Assembly (NCBI RefSeq): GCF_006345805.1
Contig: NC_043024.1
Span: 2,480,001 to 2,544,000 of the forward strand
Reading direction: 5' to 3'
Source of the DNA: Octopus sinensis
Lineage: Eukaryota
Length of the DNA stretch: 64,000 nt
The notes beneath the pieces are model-generated. The model saw only the letters and a program-made list of their open reading frames with translations. It was not told the DNA's origin and searched no databases. Below are positions 40,443 through 59,739 of the stretch, one piece after another. Positions within the stretch are counted from its first letter, which is position 1. Every line of letters starts with the position of its first letter. Position numbers and translations under genes: made by a program.

Positions 40443-43400
40443 ATCTGCGGCAAATTCTTCACTCAAAACGATGTCTTAACTAAGCACAAACGTATCCATA
40501 CAGGAGAGAAACCTTACCATTGTGATATCTGCGGTAAATCTTTCTCGCAAATAAATAACTTAACTACTCACAAACGCATTCATACAGATGATAATCAATA
40601 TCATTGTGATATCTGTGGTAAATCCTTCTCTCAGAATCATCACTTGACTGAACACAAATATATTCATACAGGAGATAAGCCGTATCACTGTGACACCGGT
40701 GGTAAATCTTTCTCTCAGATAAATAACTTAAACACTCACAAGCGTATTCATACAGGTGAGAAGCCCTATCACTGTGATACCTGTGGTAAATCTTTCTCTC
40801 AAATAAATAACTTAAACACTCACAAGCGTATTCATACAGGTGAGAAGCCCTATCACTGTGACACCTGTGGTAAATCTTTCTCTCAGATAAATAACCTAAA
40901 CACTCACAAGCGTATACATACAGGTGAGAAGCCCTATCACTGTGACACCTGTGGTAAATCTTTCTCTCAGATAAATAACTTAAACACTCACAAGCGTATT
41001 CATACAGGTGAGAAGCCCTATCACTGTGACACCTGTGGTAAATCTTTCTCTCAGATAAATAACTTAAACACTCACAAGCGTATTCATACAGGTGAGAAGC
41101 CCTATCACTGTGACACCTGTGGTAAATCTTTCTCTCAGATAACTAACTTAAACACTCACAAGCGTATTCATACAGGTGAGAAGCCCTATCACTGTGACAC
41201 CTGTGGTAAATCTTTCTCTCAGATAAATAACCTAAACACTCACAAGCGTATTCATACAGGTGAGAAGCCCTATCACTGTGACACCTGTGGTAAATCTTTC
41301 TCTCAAATAAATAACTTAAACACTCACAAGCGTATTCATACAGGTGAGAAGCCCTATCACTGTGACACCTGTGGTAAATCATTCTCTCAGATAAATAACT
41401 TAAACACTCACAAGCGTATTCATACAGGTGAGAAGCCCTATCACTGTGACACCTGTGGTAAATCTTTCTCTCAAATAAATAACTTAAACACTCACAAGCG
41501 TATTCATACAGGTGAGAAGCCCTATCACTGTGACACCTGTGGTAAATCTTTCTCTCAAATAAATAACTTAAACACTCACAGGCGTATTCATACAGGTGAG
41601 AAGCCCTATCACTGTGACACCTGTGGTAAATCTTTCTCTCAAATAAATAACTTAAACACTCACAGGCGTATTCATACAGGTGAGAAGCCCTATCACTGTG
41701 ACACCTGTGGTAAATCTTTCTCTCAAATAAATAACTTAAACACTCACAGGCATATTCATACAGGTGAGAAGCCCTATCACTGTGACACCTGTGGTAAATC
41801 TTTCTCTCAAATAAATAACTTAAACACTCACAGGCGTATTCATACAGGTGAGAAGACCAATCACTGTGACACCTGTGGTAAATCTTTCTCTCAAATAAAT
41901 AACTTAAACACTCACAAGCGTATTCATACAGGTGAGAAGCCCTATCACTGTGACACCTGTGGTAAATCTTTCTCTCAAATAAATAACTTAAACACTCACA
42001 AGCGTAGTCATACAGGTGAGAAGCCCTATCACTGTGACACCTGTGGTAAATCTTTCTCTCAAATAAATAACTTAAACACTCACAGGCGTATTCATACAGG
42101 TGAGAAGCCCTATCACTGTGACACCTGTGGTAAATCTTTCTCTCAAAAAAATAACTTAAACACTCACAAGCGTATTCATACAGGTGAGAAGCCCTATCAC
42201 TGTGACACCTGTGGTAAATCTTTCTCTCAAATAAATAACTTAAACACTCACAAGCGTATTCATACAGGTGAGAAGCCCTATCACTGTGACACCTGTGGTA
42301 AATCTTTCTCTCAAATAAATAACTTAAACGCTCACAGGCGTATTCATACAGGTGAGAAGCCCTATCACTGTGACACCTGTGGTAAATCTTTCTCTCAAAT
42401 AAATAACTTAAACACTCACAGGCGTATTCATACAGGTGAGAAGCCCTATCACTGTGACACCTGTGGTAAATCTTTCTCTCAAATAAATAACTTAAACACT
42501 CACAGGCGTATTCATACAGGTGAGAAGCCCTATCACTGTGACACCTGTGGTAAATCTTTCTCTCAAATAAATAACTTAAACACTCACAGGCATATTCATA
42601 CAGGTGAGAAGCCCTATCACTGTGACACCTGTGGTAAATCTTTCTCTCAAATAAATAACTTAAACACTCACAGGCGTATTCATACAGGTGAGAAGACCTA
42701 TCACTGTGACACCTGTGGTAAATCTTTCTCTCAAATAAATAACTTAAACACTCACAAGCGTATTCATACAGGTGAGAAGCCCTATCACTGTGACACCTGT
42801 GGTAAATCTTTCTCTCAAATAAATAACTTAAACACTCACAGGCGTATTCATACAGGTGAGAAGCCCTATCACTGTGACACCTGTGGTAAATCTTTCTCTC
42901 AAATAAATAACTTAAACACTCACAGGCGTATTCATACAGGTGAGAAGCCCTATCACTGTGACACCTGTGGTAAATCTTTCTCTCAAATAAATAACTTAAA
43001 CACTCACAGGCATATTCATACAGGTGAGAAGCCCTATCACTGTGACACCTGTGGTAAATCTTTCTCTCAAATAAATAACTTAAACACTCACAGGCGTATT
43101 CATACAGGTGAGAAGACCTATCACTGTGACACCTGTGGTAAATCTTTCTCTCAAATAAATAACTTAAACACTCACAAGCGTATTCATACAGGTGAGAAGC
43201 CCTATCACTGTGACACCTGTGGTAAATCTTTCTCTCAAATAAATAACTTAAACACTCACAAGCGTATCATACAGGTGAGAAGCCCTATCACTGTGACACC
43301 TGTGGTAAATCTTTCTCTCAAATAAATAACTTAAACACTCACAGGCGTATTCATACAGGTGAGAAGCCCTATCACTGTGACACCTGTGGTAAATCTTTCT

Positions 43401-58400: not shown

Positions 58401-59739
58401 TGATACCTGTGGTAAATCTTTCTCTCAAATAAATAACTTAAACACTCACAAGCGTATTCATACAGGTGAGAAGCCCTATCACTGTGACACCTGTGGTAAA
58501 TCATTCTCTCAGATAAATAACTTAAACACTCACAAGCGTATTCATACAGGTGAGAAGCCCTATCACTGTGACACCTGTGGTAAATCTTTCTCTCAGATAA
58601 ATAACTTAAACACTCACAAGCGTATTCATACAGGTGAGAAGCCCTATCACTGTGATACCTGTGGTAAATCTTTCTCTCAAATAAATAACTTAAACACTCA
58701 CAAGCGTATTCATACAGGTGAGAAGCCGTATCACTGTGAAACCTGTGGTAAATCTTTCTCTCAAATAAATAACTTAAACACTCACAAGCGTATTCATACA
58801 GGTGAGAAGCCCTATCACTGTGACACCTGTGGTAAATCATTCTCTCAGATAAATAACTTAAACACTCACAAGCGTATTCATACAGGTGAGAAGCCCTATC
58901 ACTGTGACACCTGTGGTAAATCTTTCTCTCAGATAAATAACTTAAACACTCACAAGCGTATTCATACAGGTGAGAAGCCCTATCACTGTGATACCTGTGG
59001 TAAATCTTTCTCTCAAATAAATAACTTAAACACTCACAAGCGTATTCATACAGGTGAGAAGCCCTATCACTGTGACACCTGTGGTAAATCTCTCTCTCAA
59101 ATAAATAACTTAAACACTCACAAGCGTATTCATACAGGTGAGAAGCCCTATCACTGTGACACCTGTGGTAAATCTTTCTCTCAAATAAATAACTTAAACA
59201 CTCACAAGCGTATTCATACAGGTGAGAAGCCCTATCACTGTGACACCTGTGGTAAATCTTTCTCTCAAATAAATAACTTAAACACTCACAGGCGTATTCA
59301 TACAGGTGAGAAGCCCTATCACTGTGACACCTGTGGTAAATCTTTCTCTCAAATAAATAACTTAAACACTCACAAGCGTATTCATACAGGTGAGAAGCCC
59401 TATCACTGTGACACCTGTGGTAAATCTTTCTCTCAAATAAATAACTTAAACACTCACAAGCGTATTCATACAGGTGAGAAGCCCTATCACTGTGACACCT
59501 GTGGTAAATCTTTCTCTCAGATAAATAACTTAAACACTCACAAGCGTATTCATACAGGTGAGAAGCCCTATCACTGTGACACCTGTGGTAAATCTTTCTC
59601 TCAAATAAATAACTTAAACACTCACAAGCGTATTCATACAGGTGAGAAGCCCTATCACTGTGATACCTGTGGTAAATCATTCTCTCAGAATCATAACTTA
59701 ACGACTCACAAACACATCCATACTGGAGAGAAGCCTTAA
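40443..59739 (+). CDS. Putative giant C2H2 zinc-finger reading frame (~230 fingers, ~6400 codons); no in-frame ATG visible; ~17 small indels in this sequence; may be a pseudogene
   Basis: Three divergent lead-in fingers (40443-40677), ~226 near-identical fingers, then a divergent last finger ending HTGEKP-TAA (59737-59739). No nonsense substitution was seen in the finger frame within the array. Confidence 0.5.
40678..59686 (+). repeat. 84-bp tandem array, ~226 units, one C2H2 finger per unit
   Basis: Consensus cactcacaagcgtattcatacaggtgagaagccctatcactgtgacacctgtggtaaatctttctctcaaataaataacttaaa. Length/84 gives ~226. Confidence 0.99.

Follow-up and report, generated by a model that had tools for sequence, protein, structure and literature searches.

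The zinc-finger array located at positions 40443–59739 of the Octopus sinensis window (the entire 64,000-nucleotide stretch of DNA that was analysed) is likely to represent a young, neutrally evolving and non-coding satellite, which would have grown within a start-less zinc finger (ZNF) gene fragment after that fragment had been duplicated. The locus is organised as follows:

40443–40514, plus strand: incomplete first finger without its first Cys (helix QNDVLTK)
40515–40682, plus strand: two divergent fingers with helices QINNLTT and QNHHLTE, the linker of the former having decayed to DDNQ
40683–59652, plus strand: tandem array of one C2H2 finger (helix QINNLNT) in 226 units of 84 bp, 209 in-length and 17 with indels
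59653–59739, plus strand: closing divergent finger (QNHNLTT), followed by the TAA stop (59737–59739)

This layout, i.e., some 226 copies of one finger with divergent fingers at both ends and a terminal stop, agrees with that proposed in the first-pass annotation and amounts to 230 fingers closing in a TAA, which were recognised as C2H2 fingers by PF13465 (298.7 bits) and PF00096 (160.1 bits) in the first 280 residues. Tandem-repeat analysis of the array returned a period of 84, 229.3 copies and 97% matches across 19.2 kb as assembled. The units are homogenised, with a mean identity to the modal unit of 98.8% and a mean pairwise difference of 1.9%, and ATG is absent from the array in all frames. 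As had also been observed, none of the 209 in-length units carries a nonsense substitution, and all four ligands are kept in 208 of them, the sole loss being a Cys to Gly change in the first QINNLNT unit. The array was furthermore said to exceed normal C2H2 genes in size, and indeed 63 of the 65 finger arrays in 629 kb possess between 3 and 42 fingers.

A single reading frame of ~230 fingers had been envisaged for this locus, overlooking that 17 of the 226 units are frameshifted (fourteen by -1, one by -2 and two by +1). As assembled, one 230-finger ORF is ruled out by these frameshifts: the first open frame stops at 43325 (965 aa), while the longest open frame extends to 1593 aa.

43203–57720, plus strand: span holding all 17 indel units, with every indel at a polymorphic site
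43203, 43370, 44545, 46140, 50927, 51178, 52437, 52772, 52854, 53191, 53358, 55625, 55708, 56043, 56882, 57469 and 57638, plus strand: starts of the indel units

For each indel the null is 0.18, and yet all 17 coincide with polymorphic sites; errors in the consensus are thus their probable source, and in reality the array may be open across ~6,400 codons. It is unlikely that they are instead real, generated by error-prone repair at mismatches during unit exchange, in which case the array would be frame-broken in the animal. The same deletions do recur (position 59 in six units and position 38 in three), as inherited copies would, but the two copies of a duplicated block described below do not share them at matching positions (units 33/91 and 35/93), and the insertions resemble both alleles written next to each other. 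A second giant array, on contig C27, presents a similar picture, where seven of the nine single deletions that are explainable coincide with polymorphic sites (null 0.11).

The locus had been described as an ordinary ZNF gene body, yet its 5' part has been replaced by a retroposon tail, as is apparent from the upstream features:

38827–38834 (unstranded): CCGGAAGT motif, which recurs upstream of every ZNF gene on the minus strand (14724, 27388, 38827)
39057–40138, plus strand: broken Tc1/mariner-type transposon fragment, multi-copy in the cluster, with HTH_Tnp_Tc3_2 at 39561–39806
40284–40442, minus strand: non-LTR retroposon 3' tail, fused mid-finger, 86% identical to the tail beside an RVT_1 frame at 11381–12436

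The retroposon-tail alignment stops exactly at 40442, and the tail contains an in-frame TAA at 40425–40427, downstream of which, in agreement with the earlier observation, there is no in-frame ATG. The 1.4 kb upstream of the array consists of transposon DNA with no in-frame KRAB, SSXRD or SET domain, and the Tc1/mariner fragment at 39057–40138 matched Pfam in its HTH part only, with no match to a DDE domain.

In contrast, the ZNF genes that surround the array generally carry a start codon:

32767–34939, minus strand: neighbouring ordinary ZNF gene with 22 fingers and 19 helices, an ATG 35 codons before finger 1 and one internal stop
20036–22291 and 7636–8679: further ZNF family members

An in-frame ATG is situated 7–73 codons from finger 1 in 30 of the 38 cluster arrays, and the ordinary members that were scored comprise 3–42 fingers with diverse helices and near-identical runs of at most four. 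A similar retroposon tail is also joined to two mini-arrays of five identical units at other sites of the cluster, neither of which possesses an ATG. Among arrays picked by neighbourhood or long frame, near-identical runs do not exceed four in the 53 that bear an ATG, while the 12 ATG-less arrays exhibit runs of 122, 58, 5 and 5, and of at most three in the remainder. A rule that homogenisation occurs only in ATG-less fragments is not claimed, because the loci were selected in this manner and because the C27 array, probably ATG-less only via run-length errors, would be an exception. The long ZNF frames were taken from two family searches (which scored 150 of 17,956 candidates for PF13465 and 150 of 29,234 candidates, respectively), and the seven examined frames of more than 1000 aa include one giant homogeneous array and six that are ordinary or only locally repetitive.

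The fragment that contains the array is present at five places, sharing both flanks or one, and the four unamplified sister loci, 80–390 kb from the array on the same chromosome, hold 1, 0, 1 and 1 QINNLNT-type units, respectively. The closest of these units, at C28:2135k, is identical to the modal unit at 83 of 84 positions, as compared to 82 of 84 for the two other sister units. The flanks of the sister loci differ by 1.5–3.5%, including the following segment:

59740–61360, plus strand: 3' flank common to the four sister loci, with 1.5–2.3% substitutions versus the array locus

The retroposon-finger junction is common to three of the four sister loci, a 1-base deletion causing a frameshift is shared by two of them, and whole fingers have gone from several. 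The partial first finger of the array locus (QNDVLTK) seems to have arisen as a deletion hybrid between ancestral QNDGLIK and QSDVLTK, both of which occur in sister fragments. A genome-wide search with an exact 38-base unit pattern returned 145 matches, and among the 100 listed, 99 are in the array and one is in a sister locus. Two own-genome searches, each scoring 39 candidates, returned no intact parent gene, and their best non-sister matches are ~82% identical (a lower bound).

One of the two interpretations offered in the first-pass annotation, the origin of a satellite from a ZNF exon, is supported by the missing start codon, the retroposon-fused 5' end and the decaying sister fragments. 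In the history proposed for the satellite, the first two steps are visible in the sequence: a local C2H2 cluster member lost its 5' part, the break joining the retroposon tail to mid-finger, and this fragment is present at five places, of which the four others, now decaying, hold the QINNLNT finger once (three loci) or never (one locus). The QINNLNT finger may then have misaligned with the next finger, their first 36 bases being almost alike, with the result that the finger was duplicated and that synonymous alleles of its neighbour were brought in. Indeed, only positions 12, 27 and 36 distinguish the first 36 bases of the QNHNLTT finger from the modal unit, and the differences there are the three synonymous alleles most common in the array. 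Growth of the array is likely to have occurred by unequal crossing-over or slippage, where duplications of units and of a ~58-unit block, the latter being partly visible, would have enlarged it while mutations gathered without visible selection. If, as supposed, most of the 17 indels are errors of the consensus where sites are mixed, the open frame would probably reflect no more than the youth of the array.

The variants among the units were previously described as synonymous or conservative, which holds for the four commonest but not for those that follow, i.e., R>H (10 units), P>T (7), I>K (5) and I>S (3), while CCC/CCG variation is found in only three units. Alleles 12T, 27A, 36G and 84G are already present in adjacent ancestral fingers, and the CCG allele was supplied by the second divergent finger, QNHHLTE. 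A tally of synonymous against non-synonymous sites, suggested as a check in that annotation, fits neutrality and gives no sign of selection: 6 of 20 variant sites are synonymous as compared to a neutral expectation of 3.9–5.3 (P 0.18–0.44, with few sites and little power). When the four inherited alleles are removed, the 16 remaining sites comprise 14 non-synonymous, 2 synonymous and no stop changes, for which the neutral expectation is 3.1–4.2 synonymous sites and a probability of 0.49–0.63 that no stop occurs (16–20 sites having little power). Synonymous bias as proof of selection was rejected, since the common synonymous alleles are inherited and the other sites fit neutrality. Within the helix, position -1 varies only synonymously, position 3 is invariant and position 6 is altered in 2 of the 209 units.

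The other interpretation that had been offered, a giant protein of ~230 fingers, is unsupported at this locus, given the absence of an ATG, the retroposon-fused 5' end and the neutral variant tally. Such a protein would require that the indels are errors and that an upstream exon splices in, yielding ~229 identical fingers across ~6,400 aa, and we consider it very improbable. It retains some chance because the 17 frameshifts, all at polymorphic sites, look like consensus errors and because an upstream exon is conceivable: the locus contains 67 phase-0 acceptor-like sites, including ones in units 2–3, and the CCGGAAGT motif at 38827, presumably ETS-type, lies 1.6 kb before the array and may act as a promoter. 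The intact terminal finger and stop, the lack of stop substitutions, the single ligand loss and the apparent start codon of the C27 array are likewise compatible with translation. On the other hand, the first finger is cut by the retroposon tail, genes of the cluster carry their ATG in the finger-bearing frame, the sister fragments are decaying, and the absence of stops is expected by chance. Moreover, donor-like ACAG|GTGAG occurs in 225 array units versus 38 of 479 ordinary linkers, which would presumably hinder a 19-kb exon. No run recorded as RNA is listed among those containing array words, which speaks neither for nor against expression. In one presumed RNA run (X6), contigs of 83 and 80 bases with depths of 9.6 and 22 lie over unit 4; they do not cover 40167–40259 and may derive from sister loci or from DNA.

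The C27 array, which is located on another chromosome, comprises 334 fingers with helix QSTNLTD across 28 kb, and appears to keep the start codon of the family, its 5' end holding a 510-base duplicate that differs almost only by run-length indels. It is a better candidate for a giant protein than the QINNLNT array, and its apparent ATG implies that loss of the start codon is no precondition for amplification. Gln at -1 with Asn at +3 is present in both giant arrays as compared to 92 of 1208 other fingers, a post hoc comparison which could be a hint of selection. According to the recognition code, fingers with Gln at -1 and Asn at +3 are predicted to bind runs of NAA triplets. That octopus ZNF clusters repeatedly yield giant single-finger polymers, at least one of which (this array or that on C27) is translated, seems rather doubtful; if true, the product would be a protein of ~229 fingers and ~6,400 aa, or of ~330 fingers for C27, with Gln(-1)/Asn(+3) helices coating NAA-triplet microsatellites. 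We know of no C2H2 protein approaching ~229 or ~330 fingers, and translation of either array would thus set a new extreme of protein architecture. Together the two arrays hold ~560 fingers and many long ATG-less ORFs, which can inflate finger and ORF counts.

The assembled length of the array was considered in the light of its internal block structure and of short-read data:

41523–43202, plus strand: units 13–32, forming a block of 20 whose pattern of variants is seen again in units 71–90
46391–48070, plus strand: units 71–90, second block copy, 58 units (4.87 kb) downstream of the first

The two blocks are identical in 19 of 20 units, and a gapped block alignment scored 115.6 versus a maximum of 42.0 in 100 shuffles (which also destroy local clustering), while the lag autocorrelation of 0.29 at lag 58 is not above the shuffle maximum of 0.29; the block structure is thus putative and may be a product of the assembly. 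Of the sampled array words, fractions of 0.49, 0.40 and 0.36 were present in three large short-read runs, where non-array DNA explains 0.17, a baseline that represents ~0.7 Mb of non-array DNA rather than the whole genome; runs with a small share held 0.13–0.23, i.e., the level of this baseline. The short-read words support an amplification, and the assembled length of 226 units is putative. No tandem junction is proven by short-read contigs among the matches listed.

It is possible, although it is not the favoured explanation, that the amplification is real and its length largely over-assembled, for example by a ~58-unit block or two haplotypes having been stitched several times. Consistent with this, the indels are limited to units 33–205, away from the anchored array ends, the block recurs at lag 58, and the run-length indels of the C27 duplicate are a sign of noisy joins in the assembly. 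In addition, the depth of helix contigs relative to a four-locus finger bin is ~10–19 (run X2), 5–7 (X3) and 2.5–5 (X1), under the ~60 expected for 226 copies, with contig depth being a hint and no valid copy number. However, the blocks are not identical, with one substitution and a differing unit order beyond ~20 units, the runs may represent other animals with shorter alleles, and contigs drop rare variants. Over-assembly would touch the length only and is compatible with a satellite.

A non-coding function as a heterochromatin seed, a decoy or a repeat RNA acting on thousands of related ZNF transcripts also appears improbable. The array is positioned in a dense ZNF cluster, many other fingers possess the same linker sequence (17,956 first-look PF13465 candidates), and vertebrate ZNF clusters are reported to lie in H3K9me3-marked regions (PMC10547256). 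The array is absent from the four sister loci and is therefore recent and locus-specific, which counts against such a function.

If the locus is indeed a satellite, it would be one of the rare cases that document the states before and after a protein module gave rise to a satellite, since the single-copy precursor is kept in sister loci and the common variants are traceable to a neighbouring finger. The C27 array suggests that runaway single-finger amplification recurs in this genome, making the mutational engine of ZNF arrays testable in cephalopods. The locus also cautions against reading selection into synonymous-looking variants of tandem coding repeats, as these can be inherited.

Among known systems, the array resembles the mouse PRDM9 minisatellite in its homogenised tandem 84-bp C2H2 units and their turnover by duplication and loss; mouse Prdm9 possesses 7–17 repeats, which vary mostly by non-synonymous changes in codons -1, 3 and 6 (PMC3890296). 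In contrast, the present array has 226 units, no start codon and no in-frame KRAB or SET domain, the residues at -1 and 3 being unchanged throughout and that at 6 altered in only two units. The finger and linker type and the clustered, tandem-duplicated setting correspond to those of the expanded cephalopod C2H2 clusters, for which the accessible portions of the reports make no mention of single-finger arrays (PMC9068888, PMC12513265). No report of single-finger ZNF satellites was found in the literature searched, where supplements could hold finger-count tables. Unlike the ordinary members of its own cluster, the array is composed of one finger repeated 226 times. It shares long tandem C2H2 arrays and TGEKP linkers with vertebrate ZNF91/ZNF208/ZNF850-like proteins, among whose best 120 listed matches (491–2000 aa) there are at most 34 fingers and seven copies of one helix, QINNLNT being absent. 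In protein searches that scored 8000 candidates each, a 4-finger query had octopus proteins among its matches and found its highest identity, 69%, in an Octopus sinensis ZNF of near length, while a 10-unit query reached at most 66% against longer proteins; generic ZNFs crowded both searches, which are therefore a weak guide.

Young locus-specific satellites are characterised by head-to-tail units that are ~98% alike, neutral variants, block duplications and a single-copy precursor. The array is similar to these in its long succession of head-to-tail, near-identical units (as assembled), its seemingly neutral variants and its identified unamplified precursor, and putatively in its block duplications. 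It differs from ordinary satellites in that the precursor survives in sister loci and in that each repeat forms an entire protein module in frame, and the array therefore mimics a gene.

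A 19-kb region is delineated by Tandem Repeats Finder at 40485-59735 (period 84, 229.3 copies, 97% matches), which, upon unit-by-unit reading, resolves into the following components:

5' of 40683 (+): one partial finger and two divergent fingers
40683-59652 (+): 226 QINNLNT-type units, i.e., 84-bp C2H2 fingers named for their helix
3' of 59652 (+): one last divergent finger, then TAA at 59737-59739

Mean identity to the modal (commonest) unit is 98.8% across the 209 full-length units, which contain no stops and a single ligand loss, in agreement with the counts of the first-pass annotation. 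That annotation had, however, treated the array as an intact frame, overlooking frameshifting indels in 17 units; as assembled, the first frame closes at 965 codons and the longest spans 1593 codons. Each of the 17 indels is expressible as a gap at a unit position that varies in at least three units (nine of 84 positions do so; probability for a random single deletion, 0.18), and both insertions resemble two alleles written side by side. The indels are confined to units 33-205, and none is common to the matching places of a repeated block. We infer that this pattern is the expected residue of consensus calling over mixed, mis-placed reads, and an uninterrupted frame of ~6,400 codons may accordingly underlie the array.

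The window (contig C28, 2480001-2544000, of a 2.72-Gb genome) falls within a region densely populated by clustered C2H2 zinc-finger genes, with 38 arrays of at least three fingers in 414 kb. Among the candidates scored for a four-finger protein query, octopus proteins were represented, the top identity (69%) being to an Octopus sinensis ZNF, and the genome is accordingly taken to be octopus; large clustered C2H2 expansions in cephalopods are on record in two reports (PMC9068888, PMC12513265). The window also contains a paralogous ZNF gene pair, 20036-22291 (-) and 32767-34939 (-), of 87-88% identity, both with internal stops and the former also with frameshifts, which belongs to a 12-13 kb duplicated unit repeated across the cluster. 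A conserved motif block containing CCGGAAGT (at 14724, 27388 and 38827) precedes each minus-strand ZNF gene by 4-6 kb and probably represents the promoter or first exon of these genes. A broken non-LTR retrotransposon is present twice, at 10790-13720 (-), which includes RVT_1, and at 23886-26296 (-), the copies being ~95-98% alike; its short 3' tail is dispersed many times in the window, and two inverted retroposon tails form a 700-base imperfect palindrome (82% identity) at 61233-61935.

An in-frame ATG is present 7-73 codons upstream of the first finger in 30 of the 38 cluster arrays, whereas the QINNLNT array has no such start: an in-frame TAA at 40425 is followed by no in-frame ATG, as previously noted, and the array is free of ATG in all frames. 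A retroposon tail, fused into the first finger, has cost that finger its first cysteine: positions 40284-40442 align (86%) with the tail flanking a reverse-transcriptase frame of the window, and the alignment stops at the junction. A broken Tc1-type transposon lies upstream.

The suggested comparison of synonymous and non-synonymous variants yielded 6 synonymous, 14 non-synonymous and no nonsense sites (n=20), against a neutral expectation of 3.9-5.3 synonymous sites (P 0.18-0.44). The synonymous alleles 12T, 27A, 36G and 84G match the bases of adjacent ancestral fingers, so that recombination, not selection, probably introduced them; once they are set aside, 2 of 16 sites are synonymous, and zero stops in 16 sites has a neutral probability of 0.49-0.63. 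This tally, a weak test at 16-20 sites, gives no sign of the purifying selection expected of an ordinary cluster gene. The first 36 bases of the last finger agree with the modal unit everywhere except at positions 12, 27 and 36, a near-match that may have provided the substrate for the first misalignment. The donor-like ACAG/GTGAG occurs in 225 units versus 38 of 479 ordinary linkers, and the acceptor-like TTCTCTCAG, in phase 0, in 67 units; splicing would likely break up a 19-kb exon, although an upstream exon could equally splice into the array.

The 3' flank of the array matches four further places at 96-99%: C28:2135k, C28:2169k, C28:2442k and contig C2288, the last of these perhaps an alternative haplotype of another sister locus. 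Each holds a single QINNLNT-type finger except C28:2169k, which has none; these fingers share 82-83 of 84 bases with the modal unit. Three sister loci share the retroposon junction while the fourth is cut differently; a one-base deletion is common to two, whole fingers are gone from several, and flank divergence is 1.5-3.5%. An exact 38-base unit pattern has 145 genome matches, and among the 100 matches listed, 99 fell in the array and one in a sister locus. A single gain at the array locus is simpler than several losses elsewhere. Both the monomer and the precursor of a young satellite are represented; no intact parent gene was found among the candidates scored in own-genome searches.

The assembled length may be questioned. 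Units 71-90 repeat units 13-32 in 19 of 20 cases, down to rare variants, and the unit string, aligned to itself with gaps, reaches a score of 115.6 versus at most 42.0 in 100 shuffles, while plain lag autocorrelation does not exceed shuffles; either true duplication or the stitching together of haplotypes may account for the blocks. Three large runs (three samples from two studies under three organism labels, one possibly the assembly's source) contain 0.49, 0.40 and 0.36 of 53 sampled array words. This exceeds the 0.17 of the 31-mers in units 3-32 that is explained by the non-array DNA analysed, a baseline of about 0.7 Mb and not genome-wide, and supports real amplification with variants. Summed contig depth over the helix region is 2.5-19 times that of a four-locus finger bin, versus ~60 expected for 226 copies, which is a hint and not a copy number. 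An array overstated by assembly is accordingly conceivable though rather doubtful, and would be compatible with a satellite.

A second giant array, reached via the longest open frame of a family search, lies at C27:8047257-8075330 (334 units, 28 kb, helix QSTNLTD), with 290 near-identical full-length units and one stop (TAG). Its modal unit carries Gly-to-Val directly after the second cysteine (Cys-x2-Cys-Val), divergent fingers are copied internally, indels fall at polymorphic sites as in the C28 array, and it terminates in mobile-element sequence. The family start sequence is apparently kept at its 5' end, with run-length indels and a noisy 510-base duplicate as the sole interruptions. The C27 array may be a live gene, is the better giant-protein candidate, and weakens any rule confining amplification to dead genes. 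The helices of both giant arrays carry Gln at -1 and Asn at +3, compared to 92 of 1208 other fingers (a post-hoc observation), a residue pair predicted to bind NAA triplets.

Intermediate cases of homogenisation are a 1020-codon open frame from C27:11243861 (31 fingers, RNSHLIQ in 11, a several-finger block duplicated) and an identical five-unit HNHSLST mini-array in two copies, C28:2465423-2465024 (-) and C28:2595602-2596001 (+), both of which lack an ATG, join retroposon-tail-like sequence at the 5' end and are truncated 3'. Out-of-frame, finger-derived minisatellites of a shortened 76-bp unit occur at C27:8083061-8083774 (9.5 copies) and C27:8095784-8096127 (4.6 copies), with 93-95% matches. 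A 2122-codon open frame from C16:15563283, in which 18 fingers are scattered between long spacers, is a large but ordinary ZNF built differently, and a 145-bp tandem array at C22:11713986-11720008 (~40 units), incorporating part of a common interspersed repeat, is apparently another satellite born from dispersed sequence.

Of the two readings originally offered, a satellite from a ZNF exon is supported by monomer and precursor, while a giant ~230-finger protein at this locus finds no support in the start-codon and selection results. We consider the C28 array to be most likely a young satellite that is non-coding and arose from a decapitated zinc-finger gene; translation of a giant protein appears improbable at either giant array, and highly improbable at the C28 locus. 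Literature searches, with most subscription papers outside their coverage, returned no report of such single-finger arrays. The array resembles the PRDM9 minisatellite in the size and turnover of its units, but differs from mouse Prdm9, for which 7-17 repeats varying at positions -1, 3 and 6 are described (PMC3890296), in that its units do not share this helix variation.
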